Shown piece by piece: positions 8,489 to 24,235 of a stretch of DNA of 64,000 nt. Positions within the stretch are counted from its first letter, which is position 1; the number at the start of each line of letters is the position of its first letter. This DNA is from Escherichia phage ECO71P1. Where the stretch lies: the sequence record OP172789; one strand, given 5' to 3'. The translations under genes and the position numbers were made by a program. A model generated the notes under the pieces. That model was not told where the DNA came from and did not search any database. It was given only the letters and a program-made list of their open reading frames with translations.

Positions 8489-8815
8489 ATGAACGAAAAA
8501 GATACGAAGCAACGAGAACGTGCAACACACGTCGGCATCGTTGAGTCCTTCCTTAATACAAGACTGAATTCAAGTCTTACAATTATGCGATTCCTGGGTC
8601 AACCAGACAGAATCAAATTCATCTTTGCCGCAAATCCGGTATCGCTTTACATCCCTGTTGAATCCATGGCGTACCTGGTGCGCGACGAGCAAGGGTGGAA
8701 GATACCAAACACGACTGTTTTCTTCAGTCACGTTGACGGTGAGATGTTTGAACGAAAAGAAGATTGCCATTTTATTCCAGTATATCTGGACCTTGAAAGC
8801 GTAGTGGAGTTATAA
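8489..8815 (+). CDS. hypothetical protein
   Basis: 108 aa ORF, first gene of plus-strand block. Confidence 0.45.
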   Translation: MNEKDTKQRERATHVGIVESFLNTRLNSSLTIMRFLGQPDRIKFIFAANPVSLYIPVESMAYLVRDEQGWKIPNTTVFFSHVDGEMFERKEDCHFIPVYLDLESVVEL

Positions 8816-9999
8816 TGAACATTCCAGAATTTAATAATGAGCCAGTGATTCAGTTCAACGCGCAACAGATTGATGCCATCGAAAAGGCCGTTGCATGGTA
8901 CAAGCGATTGCAGGACGGTAAAACGACGAAGCGCGTGTTTTTCATCGCTGGCTATGCAGGAACAGGTAAAACCTCTATTGCGCGTGAGATTGTGCGCCGT
9001 TGTGTCGGTGAGTACGGTGCCATTTATATTGCGCCGACCGGAAAGGCAGCCAGCCGATTGAAGCAGAAAGGGTGTCGTGGCGCGAAGACACTTCACCAGT
9101 TCATCTATAACGTGCGCGGCGTAAATGACGACAATGAGCCAATATTTTCGAGAAAGTCAAAGCTGGACGAAAAGCCGCATCTTGTAGTCCTTGATGAAGC
9201 TTCAATGGTTGGCGAGTGGGATACAGAGCGCCTTCTTGATCACCGCATCCCTGTGCTGGCATTAGGCGACATTGGACAAGTCCCTCCGGTAAAAGCCGCC
9301 GCCTACTTTACTGAAGATGCCGTTGACGTACTGTTAACCGAAATCATGCGGCAAGGGAAAGAGTCCAACATAATCCGCGCTTCCTTCTTCGTGCGACAGG
9401 GCAACCGACTTCCTCCGCGTGAATACGATGACGTCAAGGTGTTGGCTGAATCGCCGCGCGTTACCGCACTGAAGAAATTCATGGGCGAAGATGATCAGAT
9501 TATTTGTTCATATAACAGCACCAAAGATAAATGGAATTCATTATTGCGGCAAGTGAGCGGACGTATAACGCCAATGCCAGGAATCGGTGAGAAAGTTATT
9601 TGCACATTCAACCAACACGGTCCAGGATTCTGTAATGGCGAGCAAGGGATTGTTATTAGTTATGAGCCAGTACCGGACTTTGAAAGGGATGAAGATGAGT
9701 CCAATGAAATAATGTATGTAAATTTGCGCTCGCTTACCGATGGCAAAGATATAAAGGTCAAGATAAATCCTCTTTCCTTCTCTACTGATCAGGAAGTGCG
9801 CAAAGAGGCTCAACGCGCTGTTGGAGGAATGGACTATGGCTATGTCATAACGGTGCACAAATCGCAAGGCAGCGAGTGGGATAATGTGTGCGTTCTGGAA
9901 GAAATCTTGCGCGGCGTTCCGTATGCCAAGATGATGTACACAGCCATCACCCGTGCTAAGAAGAATCTGACTGTGTACCGTGATTTGAAAGCGCGTTAA
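8815..9999 (+). CDS. Dda/RecD-like superfamily 1 DNA helicase
   Basis: Walker A GYAGTGKTS, Walker B VLDEASMV, C-terminal YVITVHKSQGSEWD motif. Confidence 0.75.
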   Translation: MNIPEFNNEPVIQFNAQQIDAIEKAVAWYKRLQDGKTTKRVFFIAGYAGTGKTSIAREIVRRCVGEYGAIYIAPTGKAASRLKQKGCRGAKTLHQFIYNVRGVNDDNEPIFSRKSKLDEKPHLVVLDEASMVGEWDTERLLDHRIPVLALGDIGQVPPVKAAAYFTEDAVDVLLTEIMRQGKESNIIRASFFVRQGNRLPPREYDDVKVLAESPRVTALKKFMGEDDQIICSYNSTKDKWNSLLRQVSGRITPMPGIGEKVICTFNQHGPGFCNGEQGIVISYEPVPDFERDEDESNEIMYVNLRSLTDGKDIKVKINPLSFSTDQEVRKEAQRAVGGMDYGYVITVHKSQGSEWDNVCVLEEILRGVPYAKMMYTAITRAKKNLTVYRDLKAR

Positions 10000-10152: not shown

Positions 10153-10998
10153 GTGAATATGGCCGAAGCAATCAAAGTATTATCTAAAGAAGAAAAACAA
10201 GCAGCTGCAGCAGAACGTCGTCGCGTGGCTGAAGAAAAACGCCTGGCTAAAAAGAAAGAAGCCGAAGAAAAACGCCAGAAGCGTGAGCAGGAAAAACAAG
10301 CCAAGCGTGAAGAAGCTGCACTGAAACGCAAGCAGGCCGCTGATGAGAAAGCACAGAAACGTGCTGAAGAAGCAGCGAAGAAAGCCAAAGAGCGTGCAGA
10401 AAAAGCTGCTGCTAAGAAAGCAGAGCGTGAAGCCGCTAAAGCAGCAAAAGAAATCGAAAAGGCAAAGGCTAAAGAAGAAGCCAAGCGCCTGAAAGCTGAA
10501 CAAGCTGCTGCTAAGAAAGCAGAGCGTGATCAAGCCCGTGCTGCAGCGAAGGCCGAAAAAGAGAAGGCCAAAGAAGAAGCTAAAGCGAAACGCAAGGCAG
10601 AGCGTGAAGCTGCTAAGATTGCGGCTAAAGAAGCTGCAGAAAAGCAGAAAGAACAGCGTAAGAAAGAAGCTGAAGAACGTCGCAAAGCCATCGCAGAACG
10701 TAAGGCTGCTAAAAAGGCAAACGGTCAGCGTCGTGCAAAAGCAACCCACTTCATCTACACTGGCAATGGCCTGAGCCAGCCGCAAGAGCATTCCACCCGT
10801 GGACGCGTTCTGGCGGCGATCAAAGAAGGCGAAGTTGGCGTGGCGCAGTCTATCGATGAGCTGGGCGAAAAAGTTAAAGATCAACTGTTTGGCGCTTCCG
10901 TTCGCTCCTACCTGAGCAAGCTGGAAGAGATGGGCCACATCGAGTTTGTCGATGTTGAATCCAACGAAGATGCCGAAGACGGTGATCAAGCGGAATAA
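10153..10998 (+). CDS. Lys/Ala/Glu-rich charged repeat protein with C-terminal globular domain
   Basis: About 180 aa of KAE low-complexity repeats (AAKKAERE-type), then about 90 aa non-repetitive tail; AAGGA RBS. Confidence 0.6.
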   Translation: MNMAEAIKVLSKEEKQAAAAERRRVAEEKRLAKKKEAEEKRQKREQEKQAKREEAALKRKQAADEKAQKRAEEAAKKAKERAEKAAAKKAEREAAKAAKEIEKAKAKEEAKRLKAEQAAAKKAERDQARAAAKAEKEKAKEEAKAKRKAEREAAKIAAKEAAEKQKEQRKKEAEERRKAIAERKAAKKANGQRRAKATHFIYTGNGLSQPQEHSTRGRVLAAIKEGEVGVAQSIDELGEKVKDQLFGASVRSYLSKLEEMGHIEFVDVESNEDAEDGDQAE

Positions 10999-11025
10999 CC
11001 TTAGGACGGTTATGCAGCGGTAATT

Positions 11026-11052
11026 GACCCACACTTGTTGTGGGTCTTTTTT
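11026..11052 (+). terminator. rho-independent terminator
   Basis: GACCCACACTTGTTGTGGGTC hairpin followed by TTTTTT. Confidence 0.65.
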
Positions 11053-11130
11053 CATCTGTACTAAATAAAATGACTTGTTGCTGTAAAATAATTTAGCTAT
11101 TATACTTATCATATCACCCACAAAGGACAA

Positions 11131-12126
11131 ATGAACATGAAACAACCTGTAATGATTATCGGCGGCGGACTGGCAGGACTTATCACCGCTTGTCACTTCC
11201 CGAACTCTGTTGTGTACGAAGCAGGGGAACGAGCGCAACAGCACAAGGCGCTGCTACGCTTTCGCAGCGAAGAAGTAAGCCGTATTACCGGAATCCCTTT
11301 TAAGGCTGTGACAGTTGACAAGGCTGTGTATTTTCGCGGCCACTACTACCACGACCATTGCCCAATCAACCTTGCCAATATGTATTCCATGAAGGTCACC
11401 AATCAATTTGGCAGCCGTTCAATCATGAAGCTTAAGACTGCAACGCGTTATATTGCGCCTGATGACTTTTATGATCAGCTTGTCGACAAACTGGGTGACC
11501 GAATATTCTTTAATACTCCGGTTGATACTCTTTGCGGCTATAGCGAGACGCCAATCATCAACACGTCGCCGCTGCCAGTCATGATGAAGCTGGCTGGGAT
11601 TGATCAAAAGCTTGATTTCTCATTTGATAAAGCAAACATTCGTGTTTACCGCTTTAAGATTAAACGTAAGTGTGATTTGTATCAGACAATTTACTTCCCT
11701 GACTACTCCGTCAGAACTTACCGCGCATCAATTACTGGTGACACGCTTATCATTGAAACAATTCCTTTGGTCAGCGTGAGTGAAGCTGCAGTTGAAGCCG
11801 CTGGCGGCATCACTCGTTACCGTGACATGAAGCTGCGCGCAGAAGTCGACGAAGTGTTGACAGCCTTTGGCCTCTCATGGAGCGACATCGCTCTTGAAGA
11901 AGTTGAAAAGGTCGACCAGAAATATGGCAAGATTGTCGACATTCCGAAAGACTTGCGACACGCCCTACTCCTGCAGCTGACTATGGATTTGAACGTGTTC
12001 AGTGTCGGTCGATTTGCTACCTGGCGCAACATTTTGCTTGATGACGTTGCCCATGACCTTGTTGAAGTTGAAAAACTCATCAAAGCAAATAACTATCAAA
12101 AATTTGCTTATATTGCTAATAAATAA
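11131..12126 (+). CDS. FAD/NAD(P)-binding Rossmann-fold protein, function unknown
   Basis: N-terminal VMIIGGGLAGL dinucleotide-binding motif. Confidence 0.5.
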   Translation: MNMKQPVMIIGGGLAGLITACHFPNSVVYEAGERAQQHKALLRFRSEEVSRITGIPFKAVTVDKAVYFRGHYYHDHCPINLANMYSMKVTNQFGSRSIMKLKTATRYIAPDDFYDQLVDKLGDRIFFNTPVDTLCGYSETPIINTSPLPVMMKLAGIDQKLDFSFDKANIRVYRFKIKRKCDLYQTIYFPDYSVRTYRASITGDTLIIETIPLVSVSEAAVEAAGGITRYRDMKLRAEVDEVLTAFGLSWSDIALEEVEKVDQKYGKIVDIPKDLRHALLLQLTMDLNVFSVGRFATWRNILLDDVAHDLVEVEKLIKANNYQKFAYIANK

Positions 12127-12191
12127 TTTGCTTTCTGCTTCAATGGGCGTATACTTTAATCATTGAAGCAGAACTCATAGAGGAAACGAAA

Positions 12192-12638
12192 ATGAAACGA
12201 ATCACTGGAATCGCGCTTGCCGCTACTGCTATTCTCGGCACCATGTATATGGAAGCAACTGAAGCTGCCATCCGCACTTCCGATTCAGTCGCTGTTTACG
12301 ATTGCGAAGCGATGGACGGTAAGACCGCAGCAACGACTGGTGCGAAGATTACCACTTACATCGGTGTGAATGAGCAAGAAGGTCTGAATATTCAGATTCA
12401 GGGATTCACAGGGAAAGGTGCCAACCGTACTCCGTGGATGCAACGTTTCACTTTCGTCCAGCCTCGTTCAACTGGCGGCTTTATCAATCTGATTGGTGAA
12501 AACCGTTCTGGTGCAGAAATCTTTACATCAATGAGTTCTAATAATGAACCAAAGAAAAGTTTTCAGTTGCTTTATAACGCACAATTCGTTTATCATTGCA
12601 CCTTCTCTGGTGATCAGCAACTAGTGAATTACCGTTAA
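12192..12638 (+). CDS. secreted protein (signal peptide), function unknown
   Basis: MKRITGIALAATAILG hydrophobic leader; GAGGA RBS. Confidence 0.5.
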   Translation: MKRITGIALAATAILGTMYMEATEAAIRTSDSVAVYDCEAMDGKTAATTGAKITTYIGVNEQEGLNIQIQGFTGKGANRTPWMQRFTFVQPRSTGGFINLIGENRSGAEIFTSMSSNNEPKKSFQLLYNAQFVYHCTFSGDQQLVNYR

Positions 12639-12651
12639 TAGGACAATTAAA

Positions 12652-13425
12652 ATGAAAGTTGAATTAATTCGATACACCCAAGATGCACTTGACCTTTTGC
12701 TGGAAACAAAGAACACGCGCATGACTGGTAAGCCTGTCTCTGAGATGACGGAATCAGAGAAGCAAGAGCATTGGCGCTACATGCTTGATACAATCAAGTC
12801 ACCTTTTGACTTTGTGGACTATATCTTTGACATAACCGTTGTTTCAAAGAATATGACTCATCAGATGGTCCGAACACGCGCAGGCGCATATCAAGAACGC
12901 ACCAGTCGCGCTCAGGAATCTTCTGCATTTGATGCGATTCGCCCTAAAGCATTTGAGCACCCTGACGGCTCCACAAGCGAGCTTGGCGAGAAGTGGGATG
13001 ATGCGATGGCGACTATTGATGCCATATATCAAGAGCTTCGCGCGGCTGGCGCAGAGATTCAGGATGCGCGTGCCGTGTTGCCTTCTAATATGCAAACGCA
13101 TATCATGGCAAAGTTCAACTTGCGCACGCTGCAGCAGATGGCGTCAAACCGCTTGTGCACGCGCACTCAAGGCGAGTATCAAGAAGTATTCCGCGCAATG
13201 GTTGCGGAAGTCCTCAAGGTGCACCCGTGGGCTAATCCTTTGCTGCAGCCGCAATGCATCGGTATGGGTAAGTGTGCGTTTCCTCGTCACGGTAAAGCCC
13301 ATTGCCCTTGGTATCGTGATTGGATGGATACCACTGCACAGCAGGAAGAGTTGCGCATTCAGTTTTGGGATGCCGCGCCAATCACCAACAATCCAGTTGC
13401 TAAAGATGGAGTATCAAAAGGATGA
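12652..13425 (+). CDS. ThyX-like (flavin-dependent thymidylate synthase family) protein with variant signature
   Basis: HQMVRTRAGAYQERTSR resembles ThyX RHR-X7-S region but with RTR in place of RHR. Confidence 0.45.
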   Translation: MKVELIRYTQDALDLLLETKNTRMTGKPVSEMTESEKQEHWRYMLDTIKSPFDFVDYIFDITVVSKNMTHQMVRTRAGAYQERTSRAQESSAFDAIRPKAFEHPDGSTSELGEKWDDAMATIDAIYQELRAAGAEIQDARAVLPSNMQTHIMAKFNLRTLQQMASNRLCTRTQGEYQEVFRAMVAEVLKVHPWANPLLQPQCIGMGKCAFPRHGKAHCPWYRDWMDTTAQQEELRIQFWDAAPITNNPVAKDGVSKG

Positions 13426-14294
13426 GTTTTAAAAATAACCAAATCTTGAACGTATTCGACCTTGACGGAACTCTGTTTGATGACCGTTGGCGCTTAGACC
13501 GCATCAAGATTGCAGGTCCGTTGTCAGACTATGATGACTATCACAGCGGTATTGGTTATGATCAGTTCTATCCTCACATTGCAGCAGCAGTAGAGTCAGC
13601 ATCTCTTCGCGGTGAGGCGGTTGAATATTGGACTGCAAGGCCAGAAAAATACAGACAAGTGACTTTTGAACGTCTGGACAATGTTTTTCCTTTTGATGAA
13701 TTTACAATCAAGATGAGAGACTCTGGCGACAAACGTCCATCAACTATTATGAAATCTGAATGGCTATCGCACGCTTTGCGGCACGGCGATTATCGAATCA
13801 TCAATATATTCGACGACCGACAAGACGTACTCGCGCGGATGCAAGATGAAGCCTTGTATTATAATTCCGTTGCTCAAAATAAAATCGCTTTTACGTTTAA
13901 TCTTTGCAAGGCAGGTGAAGTGGTGCAACAATTAGCAATTGATCCAAGCGCAACGGGGCAAGAAGAGACTAAGGCTGTGGAAATTGAACAATCTCCGGCA
14001 ACCGCCGCCGATATTCTTGATGCGATGGCAGCAACCTTCCGTGAGCGCAACGCTGTCTATGGCGATAACGCTGTGATGGTAGGCCAGGTTATGCAGGTGC
14101 TTTTCCCTAATGGCGTAACGTTGAAAACGCCGGAAGACTACCACATGTGGCATCTGTTCGAGCTTAAGATTGTCAAGCTTACACGCTTTGCAATCAGCGG
14201 CCTGAAGCACGAAGACTCTATACACGACGATGGTGTTTACAGCGCCATGTGTGAACGTCTTGTCAACACCCATAATATTAATTTCAATAAATAG
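13422..14294 (+). CDS. HAD-superfamily phosphatase domain protein with extra C-terminal domain
   Basis: N-terminal VFDLDGTLFDD (DxDGT) motif; 290 aa. Confidence 0.5.
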   Translation: MSFKNNQILNVFDLDGTLFDDRWRLDRIKIAGPLSDYDDYHSGIGYDQFYPHIAAAVESASLRGEAVEYWTARPEKYRQVTFERLDNVFPFDEFTIKMRDSGDKRPSTIMKSEWLSHALRHGDYRIINIFDDRQDVLARMQDEALYYNSVAQNKIAFTFNLCKAGEVVQQLAIDPSATGQEETKAVEIEQSPATAADILDAMAATFRERNAVYGDNAVMVGQVMQVLFPNGVTLKTPEDYHMWHLFELKIVKLTRFAISGLKHEDSIHDDGVYSAMCERLVNTHNINFNK

Positions 14295-14359
14295 TTTACT
14301 TGTGCGTTTCGATGAGTTATATTTATCTCATCGAAACGAAGTCCAAAAAGGATAAATAA

Positions 14360-15043
14360 ATGAAAAAAGTAATTGTTGTAACTGGCTGCAATTCCGGTCT
14401 TGGTAAATCCATTTTTGACACCCTTGGCGCTTACGGTCACGAAGTTGTCGGTATTGATTTGGACAACGGTTATGACATCCGTAACGCGAAACAGATGAAA
14501 GAGCTTCTCTCTCAATACGACGTAGAGGGCTTGATCAACTGCGCTGGCGTCAACTCCAACAACTGGTTTGAAGACGTTAACTACGAAGAGTTTAATCGCG
14601 TTATGCACACCAACGCCTTCTCTTTCGTTAACACGACTCAGGCCGCGCTGAAAAGTCTTATTGACAACAAAGGTTTTGTGATCAACATCGTTTCCAACGC
14701 TGCGCATATTCCTATGACGTCCAGCTTGTGTTATAATGCTTCCAAGGCCGCTGCGCTTATGATTAGCAAGCAGATGGCTCACGAGCTTACGCCTAAATAC
14801 GGGATCACGGTCTTCTCTATTAGTCCTAACAAGTTGCGTGGCACTGGTATGTCTAAACAGATTGAAGATGCTGTTTGCGCGACTCGCGGCTGGACTCCTG
14901 AGTATGCTGCTGAATACCAGAAAAAGGCGTTGATGAATGGATTGGAGACTGAGCCGCAAGTAATTGCTGACTTCATTCGCCATATCTTAATTACGGGCGC
15001 ATGGCGCTTTATGTCTGGTACTGATATTCCATTTGGGAAATAA
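14360..15043 (+). CDS. short-chain dehydrogenase/reductase (SDR) family oxidoreductase
   Basis: VTGCNSGLGKS cofactor motif and YNASKAA catalytic YxxxK. Confidence 0.65.
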   Translation: MKKVIVVTGCNSGLGKSIFDTLGAYGHEVVGIDLDNGYDIRNAKQMKELLSQYDVEGLINCAGVNSNNWFEDVNYEEFNRVMHTNAFSFVNTTQAALKSLIDNKGFVINIVSNAAHIPMTSSLCYNASKAAALMISKQMAHELTPKYGITVFSISPNKLRGTGMSKQIEDAVCATRGWTPEYAAEYQKKALMNGLETEPQVIADFIRHILITGAWRFMSGTDIPFGK

Positions 15044-15046
15044 ATC

Positions 15047-15262
15047 ATGAACAAAGCCTGGGTAGCGGTAATCGGTTTAGTGCTTCTTGTTGTATTAGGA
15101 TACACAATCAAATTTGAAGTTCCAAATCCTGTTGAGCCTGACAAAAAGATTGTCGTTGAAGTCCCAGGCGCTAAAGGTGAATTACCAAAACCTAAATTTG
15201 AAGTTGTCACACCCGCTCCTGAAAAGCAACAGGACGAAGACAACACAGTAATTAATCAATAA
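15047..15262 (+). CDS. small membrane-anchored protein
   Basis: N-terminal VAVIGLVLLVVLGY hydrophobic segment; 71 aa. Confidence 0.4.
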   Translation: MNKAWVAVIGLVLLVVLGYTIKFEVPNPVEPDKKIVVEVPGAKGELPKPKFEVVTPAPEKQQDEDNTVINQ

Positions 15263-15282
15263 TATTTAATTAAGGAAACAAA

Positions 15283-15834
15283 ATGCCACACTTTAAAATT
15301 GAACAAATCGCCCTGTCAATTCCAGATGCTCAGCGTGCACAGGATTTTCTGGCTAAAATCGGCCTGACAGAATGGTTCCATGATCATGTTGTTGCTACTG
15401 GTCGCGTATTTGAAAATGACGAGTTTAAAGGTCGTCGCGACGATTGCACCAACGAAGCTGACTTGCGATTCAACTATCAGGCTGGCAACGGCACCGATGG
15501 CGGCGCTGGTAAGCCTCTTGAGCTTGAAATCCTTGACTACACAATGGGTTGCAACTGGATCAACGAAAACATCGACATGCTTGATGCGCACGATAATCAG
15601 GTCAGCCATCTTGGCATGCATGTGACTGCCGCTGAACTTGCTGAATGGCGTAAGTTCTTTAAAGAAGAAGGCATTCAGGTTGCGCAGGAAGTCGTAACTG
15701 ACTCTCACACCAACCCAAATATTGCTGGTCAGCGTCGTTACAACTATGTGATCTTTGATACGCGTGAAATCATCGGTGTCGACCTTAAGTTCATTGTGCG
15801 GTTGAATCAAGACGGTACTCCGTACACTGCATAA
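15283..15834 (+). CDS. hypothetical protein, possibly glyoxalase/VOC-like fold
   Basis: 183 aa; weak resemblance only; AAGGAAA RBS. Confidence 0.35.
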   Translation: MPHFKIEQIALSIPDAQRAQDFLAKIGLTEWFHDHVVATGRVFENDEFKGRRDDCTNEADLRFNYQAGNGTDGGAGKPLELEILDYTMGCNWINENIDMLDAHDNQVSHLGMHVTAAELAEWRKFFKEEGIQVAQEVVTDSHTNPNIAGQRRYNYVIFDTREIIGVDLKFIVRLNQDGTPYTA

Positions 15835-15849
15835 CGAATCGTGAATCTG

Positions 15850-15875
15850 TGGCCGTCCTAATGGGCGGCCTTTTT
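15850..15875 (+). terminator. rho-independent terminator
   Basis: GGCCGTCCTAATGGGCGGCC hairpin followed by TTTTT. Confidence 0.65.
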
Positions 15876-15888
15876 GTAGGAGGCCAAT

Positions 15889-16431
15889 GTGTTATTTCTT
15901 CCTTATGACTTCGAAACAACCGGATTAACCGTGCACCCGAAAGCGCCGCTTGGGATGCAGCCGCGCCCTATTGAATTTGCAGGCCTGTTGACGGACGGCA
16001 AAGAGATTCTTGAAACGTTCGAGTTCATAATCAACCCTGAAATCGTGATTGAAGAAATCATCACAAAGATTACCGGATTAACAAATGAAGACCTTGAGTG
16101 CAATCCGCCATTCATCAATTTTGTTCCGCAGCTAAAAGAAATCTTCAAGAAGACTGATGCCACTATCGCGCACAACCATGCGTTCGATAAGAACATTCTT
16201 GATTATGCACTACAGCGCGAAGGACTTACACTTGATGATGTTAATTTCCCAGAAATAAACATCTGTACAGTTGAGCAAACCTTGCCTATTTTTGGCCGAA
16301 GAGTTAAGCTTCAAGAGCTGTATGAATTATATTTCGGAAAATATGAACAGAAGCACCGTGCATTAGACGACGTAATATTACTGCACAAAGTCTGCCAACA
16401 AATTGGCGTATATGACATCTGGAGTAAATAA
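15889..16431 (+). CDS. DnaQ-like 3'-5' proofreading exonuclease
   Basis: Exo motifs DFETTG, HNHAFD, HRALDD; GTG start after AGGAGG. Confidence 0.8.
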   Translation: MLFLPYDFETTGLTVHPKAPLGMQPRPIEFAGLLTDGKEILETFEFIINPEIVIEEIITKITGLTNEDLECNPPFINFVPQLKEIFKKTDATIAHNHAFDKNILDYALQREGLTLDDVNFPEINICTVEQTLPIFGRRVKLQELYELYFGKYEQKHRALDDVILLHKVCQQIGVYDIWSK

Positions 16432-19328
16432 TGTTTCCACAATTGAGAGTTCGCAGCGGTTACACGTTCAAAGAAGTATATGGACGGCATCCTGAAATTA
16501 TAGCACGGCTCAAAGAGTTGGGCTGCGAAGTCGCGGCATTAGTTGATAACAATACATGGGGTCACGTTCGCTGGGAAAAGGAATGTCAGAAGAATGATAT
16601 CAAGCCTATGTTCGGCATGGAAATTCCAATCATCGACCCTGATGCGGACCCGAAAAAGGGATTCAAACCGAAGGCTTGGATATTGGCGCTTGACCTGAAA
16701 TCTTTTTACAACGCTACGACACTTGCAACACAGCGCGGCGGACTGACCCGTGCAGAGTTCGGGGCGCTGGATGGCGTCGTTAAATTCTGTGGCGGGGCTG
16801 TGGAGTTGCTGCGACCAGAGGACTACGATTATATAGACGTCAACCCATCATCGTTCCTTTTGGCCAAGCGCCAGGTATTGGCTCACCGCAACAACGGAAG
16901 GCCGCTGGTTTTAACCGGATACAACCACATGCCTTCACCTGAGCACGTTGACTTTGCTTATGCTTGGGAAGTGCGCGACACGGTCAAGCCGCACTGCATC
17001 GTTGACGCGGAAGACTTGTGCAAACAGCTTAAAGGAATCCTGACCGAAGATGAGTTGAATCAAGCAACGGCCAATGCGGTTGATATTGCAAACGGAATCG
17101 TTGGGCTTGGCCTGAAGCTGCGCAAGGCACCGATTATCCACCTTGCTGGTGACATGGTAAAGCTTGCTCGTGAGGGTATGGAGTACCGCCTTAAGGCAGG
17201 TCACATCAAAGAATGGACTCAGGAATACGAGGACCGATTCAACGAAGAGATTCACCAGATTCAGCTGAAAGACTTTGACTCATACTTTCTGGTGGTAGCG
17301 GACCTTGTACGATTCGCAAAAACAAAAATGCTTGTCGGACCCGCTCGCGGCTCATCGGCTGGTTCACTGGTTTGTTATTGCCTCGGCATCACGGAAGTTG
17401 ACCCAATCCCGTATAAGCTGCTGTTCGCCCGATTCATCGACGTAAGCCGCGCCGACCTTCCTGATATTGATATTGACTTTGAGGATACCAAACGCTATAT
17501 GGTGTTTGATTACCTTAAAGAAAAATACGGCGAAATGAACGTTGCAAAGCTTGGCAACATCAACACTCTTAAGGCCAACTCAGTAATGGCTCAGGTTGGT
17601 AAGAAATTCAACATTGGATATCACGAAACGGCCAACATTAAAAACGCATTGCTTGAATACTCATCTGGTGACGCCCGTTATGGTCACGGCCTGGAGGATA
17701 CCTTTGCAACAACTACCACGGGTCAAGAGTTTGTGGCGAAATATCCTGACGCCGCGCGTTGCATGGGTGACCTTGAGATTCACCCGTCCCACACAGGTGT
17801 TCACGCAGCGGGAATCATCGTGTGTAATGATCCAATCTCTGATTACTGTACTGTAACGGCGGAAGGGATTGCGCAAATTGATAAGCCTGACAGCGAATAC
17901 CTTAACCTTTTGAAGCTTGATGCATTGGGTCTTCGCACCCTCGGAATCATTTCTGATACTGGCGTGATAGACGCTGAAACGCTGTACGGAATCAAGCTTG
18001 ATGATCAAAGCGTCCTTGACATCCTTAACGAAAACAAGATGTCAGGAATATTCCAGTTTGAAGGCGACGCTGTACGCTCAGTAACCAACTTTGTGCACGT
18101 TGATAACTTTAACAAAATCGATAACCTGACAGCACTTGGCAGACCTGGCCCGTTGTCATCCGGTATGGCCCAGAAATACATCGAACGCGCGGCAGGACGT
18201 GCGCCGATTGAGTACGACGTGCCGCAGCTTGAGCCGTACTTAAAAGAGACTTACGGCGTGTTTCTTTACCAAGAGCAAATCATGGCCGTGGTTAAAGAGA
18301 TTGGTTCATTCGACTGGGCGAAAACATCAGCTGTACGTAAGGCAATGTCAGGTCGTAAGGGTGAAGAATACTTTAACAAGCTTGGCGAAGACTTCGTTGC
18401 AGGCGCAATAAATAACGGCGTACCGGAAGCGGATGCAAGAAAGCTTTGGCAGGCGATGGCGACGTTCGGGTCATGGGGCTTTAACAAGTCACACTCCGTG
18501 TCATACGCGGTCGTGACTTACTGGACCTTGTGGCTTAAACGACACTACCCGCTGGAATTTGCCGCTGCTTGCTTACGCGCTGCTAAGGACGAAGACCAGA
18601 CGATTGCGATATTACGTGAACTTGCAAAGGAAGGCGTGGATTATGTGCCAATCGACCCTGATCACTCTTCAATGAACTGGACCATCGCTAACGGAAAGCT
18701 AATCGGCGGCATCATGAACGCTAAAGGGTACGGAATGGTAAAAGCGATGAAGTACATCGAAGCACGTGAAGCCGGAACCTTAACGCAAAAACAAAAGGAC
18801 GCATTGGCCAATGCTGAAGTCAAATACGGCGACCTTACAGAGATGCACACCAAGTTCGGTTGGGCGTATAATGACCCCTATCTGATTGGCGTTACTTCCG
18901 GTGCTTCAATACGCCAGATGAAGGAAGTCGGTGATGACGAGCGTGCAATAGTGATCGGCAAGCTGACCAAGAAAGTGCTGGCTGACGAGAACGAAGCAAC
19001 ACGCATCCGTAAACGTCTTGAGCGCGGCATTTATACAAAGCACGGCAAACTTAAAAAGGGTCTTCAAGCTGATGGTCGCTACGCAGAGTTTGACCAGTAT
19101 GGAAACAAGCTTGAGACTCAGTTCATTGACCTTATGTGCAAGGACGATTCGACCGACTCGCCAATGCGCTTCAGGATTCGCCCAGAGAAGTTCCAGAAAT
19201 ACGGTAAATACATTGCAGAGAACGTCGGGAACGGCGCATTCTTCCTGATGAAAGGCCGCAAGCTTGAAGGTATTGACATGTTTATCGTCGACGTGATCAA
19301 ACAGGTGTATCCAGATGGCAACAAATAA
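16431..19328 (+). CDS. DnaE-type (Pol III alpha / family C) DNA polymerase catalytic subunit
   Basis: PARGSSAGSLVCYCLGITEVDP...PDIDIDF and GFNKSHSVSYAVVTYWTLWLK match hallmark DnaE segments. Confidence 0.85.
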   Translation: MFPQLRVRSGYTFKEVYGRHPEIIARLKELGCEVAALVDNNTWGHVRWEKECQKNDIKPMFGMEIPIIDPDADPKKGFKPKAWILALDLKSFYNATTLATQRGGLTRAEFGALDGVVKFCGGAVELLRPEDYDYIDVNPSSFLLAKRQVLAHRNNGRPLVLTGYNHMPSPEHVDFAYAWEVRDTVKPHCIVDAEDLCKQLKGILTEDELNQATANAVDIANGIVGLGLKLRKAPIIHLAGDMVKLAREGMEYRLKAGHIKEWTQEYEDRFNEEIHQIQLKDFDSYFLVVADLVRFAKTKMLVGPARGSSAGSLVCYCLGITEVDPIPYKLLFARFIDVSRADLPDIDIDFEDTKRYMVFDYLKEKYGEMNVAKLGNINTLKANSVMAQVGKKFNIGYHETANIKNALLEYSSGDARYGHGLEDTFATTTTGQEFVAKYPDAARCMGDLEIHPSHTGVHAAGIIVCNDPISDYCTVTAEGIAQIDKPDSEYLNLLKLDALGLRTLGIISDTGVIDAETLYGIKLDDQSVLDILNENKMSGIFQFEGDAVRSVTNFVHVDNFNKIDNLTALGRPGPLSSGMAQKYIERAAGRAPIEYDVPQLEPYLKETYGVFLYQEQIMAVVKEIGSFDWAKTSAVRKAMSGRKGEEYFNKLGEDFVAGAINNGVPEADARKLWQAMATFGSWGFNKSHSVSYAVVTYWTLWLKRHYPLEFAAACLRAAKDEDQTIAILRELAKEGVDYVPIDPDHSSMNWTIANGKLIGGIMNAKGYGMVKAMKYIEAREAGTLTQKQKDALANAEVKYGDLTEMHTKFGWAYNDPYLIGVTSGASIRQMKEVGDDERAIVIGKLTKKVLADENEATRIRKRLERGIYTKHGKLKKGLQADGRYAEFDQYGNKLETQFIDLMCKDDSTDSPMRFRIRPEKFQKYGKYIAENVGNGAFFLMKGRKLEGIDMFIVDVIKQVYPDGNK

Positions 19329-23645: not shown

Positions 23646-24235
23646 ACCAGATTTATGCAAACATTCGCCAGTGGGCTTCTGACCGTAACATCATCAAAGG
23701 TTGCGACCTTAAGGACCAATACCCGAAGCTTATTAGCGAGTTTGGGGAGTTGACCGACCACGTGGATCAACTCCATGACCTTGTGTTCTTTGACCCTGAA
23801 ATCGGATATACAGAGCAGGCCATCTGTGATTTACAAGCCGCAATCAAGGACGACATCGGCGATTGCCTTGTTGTGTTAACTATCCTTGCCGCGCAAAATG
23901 GTGCAAAAATCGAAGACATCAACGGCGGCGGTTGCGCCGACAAAGGTGCCCACCCTCACTCGTTTATCCTTCGCTTGGCAAAGACTCTCGGACGGCTTGG
24001 TGATGCCATTGCTAAAAATCAGAGTATGGATATTGATGTCACCATCATGGCCGCAGTCGATTACCTTTCCGGCGTAGCACATGATTATGGACTTCGACTG
24101 TCTGATTGCGCTCAGGCCGCCTATGAAGACATCAAGGACCGTAAAGGCGTGATGTACAACGGAACGTTCATCAAATCGACTGATCAGGCTTACGCCTATG
24201 CGCTGGAACAAGTGATGAATAAGGAGTTTGAGTGA
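23642..24235 (+). CDS. MazG-like nucleoside triphosphate pyrophosphohydrolase (all-alpha NTP-PPase)
   Basis: ISEFGELTDHV and DDIGDCLVVLTILA resemble MazG EExGEL / DxL motifs. Confidence 0.45.
   Translation: MNQIYANIRQWASDRNIIKGCDLKDQYPKLISEFGELTDHVDQLHDLVFFDPEIGYTEQAICDLQAAIKDDIGDCLVVLTILAAQNGAKIEDINGGGCADKGAHPHSFILRLAKTLGRLGDAIAKNQSMDIDVTIMAAVDYLSGVAHDYGLRLSDCAQAAYEDIKDRKGVMYNGTFIKSTDQAYAYALEQVMNKEFE

Follow-up and report, generated by a model that had tools for sequence, protein, structure and literature searches.

INTRODUCTION

Thymidine hypermodification in phages is known from pathways that employ a ThyA-like dUMP hydroxymethylase, a 5-HMUDK kinase, an aGPT-Pplase and tailoring enzymes (Lee et al. 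2018, PMC5889632). A further case comes from the Pbunavirus phages F8 and 14-1: according to a preprint, LC-MS of their virion DNA shows a hypermodified thymidine that occurs at TG sites and bears a C4/C5 polyol or sugar (Yee et al. 2025, bioRxiv 2025.03.31.646159). The nucleosides weigh 362 and 390 Da; the terms used for them are 'erythrose/threose sugar alcohol' and 'circularized aldopentose' derivative, and the replacement is TG-specific and affects ~25% of T. The preprint assigns no genes to the biosynthesis of the modification, and its text as available to us does not mention 5-hmdU in the F8 or 14-1 digests (bioRxiv 2025.03.31.646159). These Pseudomonas phages with modified DNA are therapeutic phages and closely related to the phage studied here, a Wifcevirus, i.e. 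a 68-kb E. coli myovirus. According to the literature, Wifceviruses resist restriction-modification (RM) systems and no protection mechanism is known. Here we describe a gene cluster in a 64,000-nt stretch of Escherichia phage ECO71P1 (OP172789; 'the window').

Organization of the gene cluster

The original prediction, made from the letters of the window, had described seven co-oriented genes between a Dda-like helicase and polymerase genes. All seven ORFs were confirmed on the + strand within 11131-15834 (Table 1). The predicted placement holds on the downstream side, where the polymerase genes encode a DnaQ-like exonuclease and DnaE, but not upstream, where the helicase gene is separated from the cluster by a gene for a K/A/E-rich protein. 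Since the genes are closely spaced with ribosome-binding sites, thyX overlaps the HAD gene by 4 bp and strong terminator-like hairpins lie at both ends, we consider the cluster a discrete operon; the Mansfield annotation has terminators at positions equivalent to both bracketing hairpins. The PHROG labels within the cluster are thymidylate synthase, polynucleotide kinase/phosphatase and FabG-like AMG.

Table 1. Features of the cluster and its surroundings (positions in the window)
Feature	Position	Strand	Remarks
Dda-like helicase	8815-9999		two genes upstream of cluster
K/A/E-rich protein	10153-10998		between Dda-like helicase and cluster
Upstream terminator-like hairpin	11026..11046	+	8-bp stem then T run; ends upstream unit, 5' boundary of cluster
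ORF1, UGM/PPOX-like two-domain FAD flavoprotein, phrog_4828	11131..12126	+	331 aa; opens conserved core
ORF2, signal-peptide-like N-terminus	12192..12638	+	148 aa
ORF3, variant ThyX (ThyX-v), Cys-rich C-terminal extension	12652..13425	+	257 aa
ORF4, HAD + C-terminal domain	13422..14294	+	290 aa
ORF4 N-terminal domain, capless PNKP-type HAD phosphatase	13422..13946	+	
ORF4 C-terminal domain, DUF6378-like four-helix bundle	13977..14294	+	
ORF5, classical SDR	14360..15043	+	227 aa
ORF6, N-terminal transmembrane anchor	15047..15262	+	71 aa
ORF7, probable VOC (glyoxalase/epimerase-fold)	15283..15834	+	183 aa
Downstream terminator-like hairpin	15851..15870	+	8-bp stem, 7 GC pairs, then TTTTT; 3' boundary
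DnaQ-like 3'-5' exonuclease	15889-16431	+	RNase_T E 1e-21
DnaE-type polymerase	16431-19328	+	next after DnaQ-like gene

Conservation of the module

We surveyed synteny in 80 IMG/VR viral loci, using the flavoprotein as seed. ThyX-v was present in 76 of the 80 loci; of the other four, one is a 4.6-kb fragment and three lie on contigs that stop within ~1 kb of the flavoprotein gene. The HAD domain was found in 67/80 loci and the domain that follows it (C-domain) in 69/80. With few exceptions the genes run flavoprotein, thyX, HAD, C-domain, (SDR, VOC), dnaQ, dnaE, with DnaQ/DnaE directly downstream of the module in 51-56 of the 80 loci and on 4 contigs from metagenome-assembled genomes (MAGs). 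The conserved core consists of four families: the UGM/PPOX-like flavoprotein, ThyX-v, the PNKP-type HAD phosphatase and the DUF6378-like domain; untruncated viral contigs all have them in this order just before DnaQ/DnaE. No more than four to six of the window's seven genes can be counted as part of the conserved module. Co-occurrence across phages, a check named in the original prediction, was seen for the core, which keeps its order across viral loci, but not for ORF2, which is lineage-specific.

Among 185,579 species (one genome each) we obtained 6 matches, all on short MAG contigs; the four longer ones show the same order at 30-39% identity and the two shorter ones reach thyX only. The module is thus essentially absent from cellular genomes and phage-exclusive. 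MAGs with the flavoprotein were binned to Bacilli, and the flavoprotein also occurs in Pseudomonas, Rhizobium and Xanthomonas phages; the triad of the module was found as well in unrelated phages, namely a Cronobacter podovirus of 42 kb and Rhizobium jumbo phages of 206 kb. An analogous set in Microbacterium, Gordonia and Mycobacterium phages comprises a flavoprotein, a nucleotidase, an SDR, a VOC or C-domain, DnaE and a ThyX-like protein.

Proteins encoded by the cluster

ORF1, predicted to be a flavoprotein, turned out to be a UGM/PPOX-like two-domain FAD flavoprotein. Its nearest structures are UDP-galactopyranose mutases (UGM); at the sequence level neither the UGM (GLF) family nor the protoporphyrinogen oxidase (PPOX) family matched, and no UDP-binding residues could be mapped. 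With 331 aa it is shorter than these GR2-type two-domain flavoproteins (365-510 aa). The flavoproteins of actinophages show weak (hhalign 47%) or non-significant homology to ORF1.

The predicted variant ThyX, ORF3, matches Pfam Thy1 over its full length (106 bits) and stays under the NCBIfam thyX equivalog cut-off (TIGR02170: 73.7 vs 87.9 bits). We compared 73 ThyX-v members (T. maritima numbering). Kept across them are Q75, R78, R80, R90, R147, R165 and R174, which we take to be the nucleotide-binding (dUMP contact) positions, so that the protein may plausibly carry out FAD-dependent chemistry at C5 of a uracil nucleotide. Changed in 73/73 are H53 (to Ile), H59 (to Phe), H79 (to T/S/N) and Y91 (to V/A), His53 presumably being the residue that stacks on folate; a further subfamily change replaces H178 by Arg. 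The ThyX signature RHRx7S accordingly reads R[T/S/N]Rx7[T/S/A]. Given the loss of His53, His59, His79 and Tyr91 in all members and the failed equivalog cut-off, ThyX-v is, as judged by sequence, a coherent, distinct subfamily whose cofactor-site residues are altered.

As predicted, ORF4 combines a HAD domain with an extra C-terminal part, namely a HAD_PNKP domain with all DxD/T/K/DD motifs intact, whose closest structural relatives are Pnkp end-healing 3'-phosphatases, followed by four helices (195-213, 216-227, 237-258 and 264-280). Similarity of this C-domain to DUF6378 is weak (E 2e-4 in one family member); by hhalign it is not MazG-like, and its best PDB match (E 0.06, not significant) is to a POU-specific helix-turn-helix (HTH) domain. 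The C-domain is 90-100% identical among proteins whose HAD domains are only ~50% identical. Both domains are fused in some phages and separate genes in others, DUF3310 takes the place of the C-domain in one lineage, and actinophages have an NT5C-like nucleotidase.

ORF5 is the SDR reductase that had been predicted (adh_short E 1e-31), with a TGxxxGxG motif, NCAG and S112/Y125/K129; it passes no NCBIfam subfamily cut-off, and its best PDB match, of FabG type, reaches E 6e-13 only. Asp33 after strand beta2 suggests a preference for NAD. For ORF7 the assignment to the VOC fold is sub-threshold (Glyoxalase_4 E 0.0045 for the protein itself; matches in 10 of 17 family members, best 2e-5); Q8, E80, E82, H109, H113 and H142 are invariant in the family. 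The SDR was found in 49/80 loci, nearly always with the VOC on contigs that extend past the SDR, and the VOC adjoins an SDR also in Microbacterium phage Sparcetus. SDR and VOC are an optional add-on pair, present in Wifcevirus and missing from Pseudomonas Pbunavirus. The predicted signal-peptide and small membrane proteins, ORF2 and ORF6, each have a hydrophobic N-terminal segment by hydropathy (residues 4-22 in ORF2; Kyte-Doolittle 19-residue maximum 2.22 in ORF6), and neither matched any family. ORF2 is confined to 3 of the 80 related loci, all Wifcevirus; as a Wifcevirus-specific insert it fills the variable slot that separates thyX from the flavoprotein gene. ORF6 lies outside the conserved module; no homologue was found in the 80 loci by a search that missed even near-identical loci.

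Comparison with Pbunavirus

Outside replication and virion structure, the only enzyme-like genes common to 14-1 and the window are the module triad and a MazG-like gene. No known modification genes were found in the annotation of either genus or in the scanned subset of hypothetical proteins. F8 and 14-1 have flavoproteins of 97% and ThyX-v proteins of 94% identity. Among their large genes ORF70 differs most (56% identity); it is not a module gene and is missing from Wifcevirus. The window contains 16 EcoRI and 7 EcoRV sites, and TG occurs in neither recognition site.

DISCUSSION

We propose, by elimination and chemical logic and with a probability of roughly 45%, that the module is a biosynthetic locus for a sugar/polyol thymidine of the Pbunavirus type. 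Its product would be a non-canonical thymidine whose C5-methyl carbon bears a sugar or polyol. The two flavoenzymes would carry out the C5 chemistry via a flavin-N5 iminium and an exocyclic 5-methylene-uracil intermediate, a type of chemistry common to ThyX, TrmFO and UGM. A C4/C5 unit would come from a sugar phosphate of central metabolism, the capless HAD would strip the remaining phosphate, possibly with the adduct already on DNA, and SDR and VOC would modify the sugar, either reducing a keto group or acting by isomerisation/epimerisation. By mass arithmetic, dU reductively alkylated at C5 by an aldopentose would give 362.13 Da, and 390.13 Da would correspond to dU plus a C6 unit without reduction or to 5-hmdU plus a pentose minus water; both masses would fit products of ThyX/UGM-type flavin-iminium chemistry. 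As Pbunavirus lacks the SDR/VOC pair, Wifcevirus would be expected to carry another adduct than the F8 and 14-1 nucleosides of 362 and 390 Da. A role in modification is favoured by the phage-exclusive rigid synteny, the distinct ThyX subfamily, the core shared with LC-MS-positive Pbunavirus and the RM resistance of Wifceviruses. The original prediction of a nucleotide- or base-modification pathway thus gains from the phage-exclusive module and the Pbunavirus modification, while the link to these genes is one that we infer; the point it makes about non-standard SDR and flavin enzymes carries little weight on its own, as ThyX itself is a flavoenzyme.

Several observations speak against the proposal. 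The TG specificity and ~25% replacement in Pbunavirus imply a DNA-level, sequence-reading enzyme, and among the module proteins we recognised no DNA-binding or base-flipping domain. Neither a kinase nor a glycosyltransferase was found. F8 and 14-1 carry different adducts despite their nearly identical flavoproteins and ThyX-v, the 'sugar alcohol' adduct of F8 is made without any SDR, and the parallel with actinophages is weakened by the doubtful homology of their flavoproteins. ThyX-v keeps the presumed dUMP contacts and may simply be a thymidylate synthase that has diverged but still uses the mononucleotide as substrate, the HAD domain has its nearest structural neighbours among end-healing phosphatases, and the synteny with DnaQ/DnaE could alternatively reflect vertical inheritance of a replication block and not a common pathway. 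The main rival, which we consider rather unlikely, is an ordinary dTMP-supply and DNA-maintenance block of mere neighbours. ThyX-v would be a genuine thymidylate synthase, the flavoprotein its NAD(P)H-dependent flavin reductase partner or an unrelated oxidoreductase, HAD/C-domain an end-healing 3'-phosphatase that acts together with the DNA ligase of the phage, or else a 5'(3')-nucleotidase shaping dNTP pools, and SDR and VOC generic auxiliary metabolic genes. The full-length Thy1 match with all presumed nucleotide-binding arginines, the lack of a ThyA elsewhere in the genome, the likeness of the HAD domain to Pnkp phosphatases, the ATP-dependent ligase of the phage and the PHROG labels agree with it, as do the constant company of DnaQ/DnaE and the F8/14-1 adduct difference, which has no obvious counterpart inside the module. 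It leaves unexplained, however, why a flavoprotein without cellular homologues stands beside ThyX-v on every long-enough contig, why His53 (presumably folate-stacking), His79 and Tyr91 are lost in 73/73 ThyX-v, why a near-invariant C-domain accompanies a fast-evolving HAD and why SDR and VOC are paired in one slot, also in unrelated actinophages. The Pbunavirus modification would then have to come from other unrecognised small proteins, leaving a complex sugar-thymidine adduct without enzyme-like genes for making it.

Modification at the level of the nucleotide pool appears improbable: ThyX-v would make a modified dUMP such as 5-hmdUMP or C5-alkyl-dUMP, HAD/C-domain would be a dTMP or dUMP phosphatase that removes a competing canonical nucleotide, and DnaE would incorporate the modified dNTP. 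SPO1- and PBS2-type phages combine the synthase for a modified nucleotide with a dTMPase, and dTMP/dUMP phosphatases are known from phages whose DNA contains hmU or uracil. The mononucleotide-type active site of ThyX-v, the NT5C-like nucleotidases filling the same slot in actinophages, the phage-encoded MazG-like pyrophosphatase and the constant adjacency to polymerase genes fit this reading, yet no phage dNMP kinase is present that could phosphorylate a bulky dUMP adduct. Moreover, the TG motif and ~25% replacement given in the preprint are hard to square with polymerase incorporation, and its available text is silent on 5-hmdU (bioRxiv 2025.03.31.646159). Even less credible are cell-envelope or sugar-nucleotide genes that remodel host glycans (e.g. 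galactofuranose O-antigen) for superinfection exclusion or release, with ORF2 and ORF6 in the same system. The O16 O-antigen contains galactofuranose. According to the literature Wifceviruses need this antigen, and the UGM-like structure of ORF1 and the export or membrane signals of ORF2 and ORF6 would suit such a role, but ORF1 has no GLF match by sequence, its gene always lies by ThyX and DnaE and not by tail or lysis genes across hosts, and ORF2 is not conserved alongside it.

Returning to the thymidine-modifying locus that we favour, the closest parallel is the sister genus Pbunavirus, also of myoviruses: F8 and 14-1 share the flavoprotein (41% identity), ThyX-v (49%) and HAD/C-domain (27%) in the same order upstream of DnaQ/DnaE, whereas Wifcevirus adds SDR, VOC and two small proteins, and its resistance to EcoRI/EcoRV exceeds what a TG-only mark predicts, which the proposal leaves without explanation. 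ORF3 has the Thy1 domain and nucleotide site of ThyX (PF02511, TIGR02170) but differs in its score, its altered motif, its Cys-rich extension and the constant flavoprotein neighbour. In contrast to T4 Pnkp and Pnkp1, ORF4 has no kinase domain, and its HAD is fused or adjacent to the DUF6378-like four-helix domain. TrmFO and RlmFO are folate- and FAD-dependent RNA uridine C5-methyltransferases with methylene-THF as carbon donor. They show that a GR-type flavoprotein can alkylate C5 of uracil in a polynucleotide via a flavin-N5 iminium, but differ in RNA substrate and donor and show no sequence or specific structural match with ORF1. With the known hypermodification pathways (PMC5889632) the two genera have in common a C5-methyl-substituted thymidine, seen in the sister genus, and genes clustered near replication genes; none of the defining enzymes of those pathways was seen, the candidate enzymes of Wifcevirus and Pbunavirus being flavoproteins, and in Pbunavirus T is replaced only partly, in a TG motif, by a thymidine with an appended sugar or polyol.

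The cluster forms a discrete transcription unit

All seven plus-strand ORFs of the original prediction were recovered with exactly the boundaries it had given them. The genes are closely packed, with AGGA/GGAG-type ribosome-binding sites before them and an overlap of 4 bp between the thyX and HAD genes. Two hairpins, which are among the strongest terminator-like hairpins of the region, flank the cluster, and terminators are annotated at both equivalent places in the Mansfield record. Because of the flanking terminators and the packing, we regard the cluster as a discrete transcription unit and not as an arbitrary slice of the genome. The neighbourhood had been described as a Dda-like helicase on one side and polymerase genes on the other; we observed that one protein intervenes between helicase and cluster, and that downstream only one of the two genes encodes a polymerase (DnaE-type), the other encoding a DnaQ-like exonuclease. 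The C-terminal part of the intervening K/A/E-rich protein is kept in Pbunavirus (14-1 ORF66; annotated in JG024 as 'putative structural protein'), and the long ORF antisense to its gene is probably an artefact of the K/A/E repeat composition. At the nucleotide level the 4.7-kb cluster region is 92-97% identical to 28 GenBank phage records, all of them Wifcevirus myoviruses of Escherichia or Shigella, including kaset, Mansfield, Bas98-101, WFH and ECML-117.

Positions of the features discussed in the text
Feature	Record	Position	Strand	Remark
Dda-like helicase	window	8815-9999		two genes upstream of the cluster
K/A/E-rich protein	window	10153-10998	+	281 aa, low-complexity; phrog_4765; between helicase and cluster
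ORF antisense to the K/A/E-rich gene	window	10180-11244		354 aa
Upstream hairpin	window	11026-11046		
Cys cluster of ORF3	window	13150-13320		C169, C203, C209, C219 (ThyX residues ~169-219); kept in Wifcevirus and Pbunavirus
C-domain of ORF4	window	13977-14294		C-terminal 100 residues
Downstream hairpin	window	15851-15870		
MazG-like nucleotide pyrophosphohydrolase	window	23663-24214	+	homologue of 14-1 ORF49; Mansfield gp56
HAD phosphatase with DUF3310	Cronobacter phage Ss1 (podovirus)	8570-9250		same slot; DUF3310 (E 1e-9) replaces the DUF6378-like domain
ORF70	Pseudomonas phage 14-1	53996-55300		434 aa; two CxxCxGxG (DnaJ-type zinc-finger-like) repeats
DnaE-adjacent block	Microbacterium phage Sparcetus	3779-7094		
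DnaE-adjacent block	Mycobacterium phage Gumball	3027-11173		

A four-family core is conserved among phages

We searched 50,697 phage records by tblastn for the flavoprotein encoded by ORF1 and found it in 361 GenBank phage records, 292 of them Pseudomonas phages, mostly Pbunavirus. Other carriers are Wifcevirus, relatives infecting Serratia, Pantoea, Xanthomonas and Salmonella, a 42-kb Cronobacter podovirus and 206-kb Rhizobium jumbo phages. The genus counts for the variant ThyX (ThyX-v, ORF3) and for the HAD/C-domain protein (ORF4) match those of the flavoprotein, and the three genes lie no more than a few kilobases apart in JG024, Ss1 and RHph_TM2_3B, with an overlap of flavoprotein and thyX genes in Ss1. 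The flavoprotein family comprises 1955 homologues, and at least 419 of the 600 pattern-matched IMG/VR stretches listed carry it.

For co-occurrence of the module we used the flavoprotein as seed in 80 IMG/VR loci. ThyX-v was present in 76 of them; three of the other four contigs stop ~1 kb or less from the flavoprotein gene and the last, at 4.6 kb, is a fragment. Of the 80 loci, 67 contain the HAD domain, 69 the C-domain, 49 SDR and 47 VOC; on contigs extending beyond the SDR gene, SDR and VOC are paired with one exception. The gene order is the same in nearly all loci: flavoprotein, thyX, HAD, C-domain, (SDR, VOC), dnaQ, dnaE. HAD and C-domain are encoded by one fused gene in some lineages and by two genes in others, and in one lineage DUF3310 occupies the place of the C-domain. 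Within the module interval of these loci no further recurrent enzyme family was found. ORF2 is limited to Wifcevirus; the search with ORF6 gave zero matches even in near-identical Wifcevirus loci and is hence uninformative on the distribution of this ORF. Among prokaryotes, a scan of one genome per species (185,579 species) gave six matches, which all lie on MAG contigs 3-59 kb long; the module gene order is the same on the four longer contigs, and the remaining two extend no further than thyX. Since these MAG contigs were the only matches of the scan, we consider the module essentially phage-restricted. The suggestion that the seven genes form an uncharacterised nucleotide- or DNA-base-modification pathway is partly supported and can be made more precise: the conserved unit is a phage-only core of four families (flavoprotein, ThyX-v, HAD, C-domain) with an optional SDR-VOC pair.

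In actinophages, similar blocks are located next to DnaE. Microbacterium phage Sparcetus encodes a flavoprotein, a phosphatase, an SDR, a VOC protein and a C-domain-containing protein before DnaE, and Mycobacterium phage Gumball and Gordonia phage Ranch encode an oxidoreductase, a nucleotidase, a methyltransferase, a small helical protein, an SDR, DnaE and a ThyX-like protein. The nucleotidase of the actinophage blocks is NT5C-like, and a methyltransferase is added in some of them. The SDR, VOC, C-domain and ThyX matches to the module are significant. The actinophage flavoproteins were not accepted as orthologues of ORF1 (hhalign probability 47% for Sparcetus gp55, non-significant for Ranch gp69 and Gumball gp61), and we term these clusters analogous.

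Sequence features of the core proteins

ORF3 is a ThyX-like protein, as had been proposed: it matches Pfam Thy1 with 106.1 bits (cut-off 24.8) over profile positions 2-191 of 191, and scores 73.7 bits against the NCBIfam equivalog TIGR02170, under the cut-off of 87.9. The ThyX signature RHRx7S is absent from ORF3, which reads RTRAGAYQERT at this place. Aligning ORF3 with T. maritima ThyX and with 73 subfamily members from viral contigs, we found T, S or N but never His at position 79, and T, S or A at position 88. Q75, R78, R80, R90, R147 and R174, which we take to bind dUMP and phosphate, are invariant in 72-73 of the 73 members; N163, R165 and E182, which together with them presumably make the nucleotide and flavin contacts, are also essentially invariant. 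The changes are equally consistent: His53, which in T. maritima ThyX presumably stacks on folate, is replaced by Ile and His59 by Phe in 73 of 73 members, Tyr91 by Val or Ala in 71 of 73, and His178 by Arg. Since the same residues are kept and the same positions altered across the subfamily, ThyX-v is, as judged from its sequences, a coherent and distinct ThyX subfamily and not a sporadic degenerate copy. ThyX-v of the Wifcevirus/Pbunavirus branch is extended at its C-terminus, and the extension contains a Cys cluster that may be a Zn or Fe-S site. A similar C...CxF...C pattern occurs in the 350-366-aa ThyX-like proteins of Gumball and Ranch, and the cluster is missing from ThyX-v of the Ss1/Rhizobium type.

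For the flavoprotein ORF1 neither Pfam nor NCBIfam gave a match at E <= 0.1, GLF and NAD_binding_8 included. Its profile match against the PDB is confined to the N-terminal dinucleotide-binding motif (E ~0.2), and by fold similarity it resembles UDP-galactopyranose mutase (UGM). We rate a cell-envelope (Galf) role of the cluster low, as phages of unrelated hosts keep the flavoprotein beside ThyX and DnaE. When ORF1, ORF7 and the C-domain were searched by sequence against solved structures, none of them gave a significant match.

The HAD phosphatase with an extra C-terminal domain could likewise be recognized in ORF4. The phosphatase is of the capless PNKP type, and all 40 sequences compared share the residues of HAD motifs I-IV (DxD, T/S, K, DD), namely D13, D15, T71, K111, D131 and D132. 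Only the phosphatase domain of T4-type polynucleotide kinase/phosphatase matches, the P-loop 5'-kinase domain being absent from ORF4. The C-domain behind it is a four-helix bundle that is 90-100% identical between proteins whose fused HAD domains are only ~50% identical, and this near-invariance suggests a very constrained partner or ligand. The best family member reaches 22 bits (E 2e-4) against DUF6378, under the gathering cut-off of 27.1, and the window's own C-domain has no DUF6378 match. Comparison by hhalign with the MazG of the phage itself (probability 1%) ruled out a MazG-like pyrophosphatase for the C-domain. Among PDB sequences the C-domain matches a POU-specific HTH DNA-binding domain best, but non-significantly (E 0.06), and we do not claim a DNA-binding identity. 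From the replacement in Ss1, the DUF3310 and DUF6378-like helical domains may be functionally interchangeable.

Accessory proteins

ORF5 bears out the predicted SDR with a YxxxK motif: it matches adh_short with 110 bits and shows the features of a classical SDR (TGxxxGxG at T8-G15, NCAG at 60-63, and S112/Y125/K129). It could not be assigned to any NCBIfam subfamily, FabG included, for which the best model scored 75 bits against cut-offs of 222-296. The VOC assignment of ORF7 stays below threshold. ORF7 itself scores 17.7 bits against the Pfam Glyoxalase family (cut-off 27), and a profile search of the PDB gave no match, but 10 of its 17 homologues match Glyoxalase_4 (best E 2e-5). Q8, E82 and H109 are invariant in the family, and we read them, without structural alignment, as metal-ligand positions; ORF7 is probably a VOC-fold protein. 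ORF2 and ORF6 each have a hydrophobic segment at the N-terminus.

The module as a candidate for thymidine hypermodification

Pbunavirus DNA, long held to be unmodified, resists five restriction enzymes with TG-containing sites, and LC-MS revealed a novel thymidine-derived nucleoside in place of roughly every fourth T (Yee et al., bioRxiv 2025.03.31.646159). The preprint names no biosynthetic genes and points out that a search by homology to known modification genes would miss such a family (bioRxiv 2025.03.31.646159). In the searchable literature, later papers included, we found neither a gene assignment for the Pbunavirus modification nor published restriction digests of Wifcevirus DNA, and the paper on phage T-dioxygenases does not mention phages of either genus. 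In the window, T before G makes up 26.6% of T on both strands, which fits the reported quarter provided that the same motif applies.

We compared all ORFs of the Pbunavirus phage 14-1 with the window. Apart from genes for virion structure and core replication, the enzyme-like genes common to both are limited to those for the flavoprotein (41% identity), ThyX-v (49%), the HAD/C-domain protein (27%), these three being collinear, and the MazG-like pyrophosphatase. The latter may help to shape the dNTP pool; its gene, which adjoins the ATP-dependent DNA ligase gene, is shared with Pbunavirus. We found no ThyA-like dUMP hydroxymethylase, 5-HMUDK or aGPT-Pplase in three annotated Wifcevirus records and a Pfam-scanned subset of the larger hypothetical proteins, a scan that covered small ORFs non-exhaustively, and no TET/JBP dioxygenases, glycosyltransferases or kinases among the Wifcevirus and 14-1 hypothetical proteins scanned. 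Because known modification enzymes were not seen, the shared enzyme-like genes are few and the chemistry fits, we consider the module the leading candidate for the thymidine hypermodification of Pbunavirus, and put the probability of this role at roughly 0.45.

Several observations have to be weighed against this role. A TG-specific mark implies a DNA-reading enzyme, and no such protein is recognizable in the module. The adducts of the Pbunavirus phages F8 and 14-1 differ (362 and 390 Da) despite module proteins that are 79-97% identical, the HAD/C-domain differences lying mainly in acidic linker repeats, and the F8 'sugar alcohol' adduct arises without any SDR. Outside the module lies ORF70, and no other large gene comes near its divergence between the two phages (56% identity, genome median 94%); ORF70 has no Pfam match and no homologue in the Wifcevirus window. 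More ordinary functions could also account for the module genes. ThyX-v, which keeps a mononucleotide-type active site, may be a plain dTMP synthase, the HAD domain could serve in end healing as a phosphatase partnered with the phage ligase, and the synteny beside DnaQ/DnaE could reflect an inherited replication block.

Restriction sites add a further constraint. The window contains 16 EcoRI and 7 EcoRV sites that a TG-only mark would not shield, and Wifcevirus must therefore have either a broader mark or an extra anti-restriction function. GATC is far rarer over the 64 kb than a first-order Markov model predicts (109 sites, 260 +/- 15 expected); BsaI (2 observed, 18 expected), SphI (9, 28) and NsiI (17, 32) sites are depleted, and HindIII (51, 26) and PstI (30, 18) sites are enriched.

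Possible chemistry and implications

In ThyX and TrmFO, alkylation of uracil at C5 passes through a flavin-N5 iminium and then a 5-methylene intermediate. An iminium at flavin N5 is also formed by UGM, there with an open-chain sugar. Enzymes of the PPOX type take hydride from carbons beside conjugated rings, and capless, PNKP-like phosphatases are the HAD type that acts on DNA-attached phosphates and could trim a sugar phosphate once it has been transferred. By mass arithmetic, reductive alkylation of dU at C5 by an aldopentose would give 362.13 Da, and the C6 analogue without reduction, or 5-hmdU plus pentose minus water, would give 390.13 Da. SDR and VOC would be a plausible pair for tailoring the sugar by keto-reduction and by enediolate isomerisation or epimerisation. 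Since both are found in Wifcevirus and not in Pbunavirus, we predict a different adduct for Wifcevirus. One possibility, which we consider unlikely in this specific form, is a new flavin-dependent route to sugar-alkylated pyrimidines: an open-chain sugar-flavin iminium would replace the methylene-flavin iminium, so that the ThyX paralogue and the UGM-like flavoprotein would join an aldose carbon to C5 of uracil or thymine, and a DNA-directed HAD phosphatase would then trim the sugar phosphate. Joining with or without a final hydride transfer would lead to the 362-Da 1-deoxypentitol-type or the 390-Da cyclic adduct. If this route were true, no enzyme of the ThyX family would have been known in DNA hypermodification before, and no sugar C-C-linked to a DNA base.

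Pbunaviruses are among the most used therapy phages against Pseudomonas aeruginosa, Wifceviruses are fast-replicating coliphages, and DNA modification decides which restriction systems and END-type nucleases stop these phages. The modification was discovered only in 2025, and the candidates are now narrowed to a module of four to six genes. If the module is responsible, hypermodification would proceed via flavoenzymes and not by the logic of ThyA, kinase and transferase, the flavoprotein family would serve as a genomic marker of modified DNA, and new enzymes for site-specific DNA functionalisation would become available; the SDR and VOC additions, and in the actinophage blocks the methyltransferase, would predict a wider family of related adducts. 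DNA hypermodification itself is already known; the defining enzymes of the known thymidine-hypermodification pathways were not seen with the module, whose gene set is unlike that of any pathway described.
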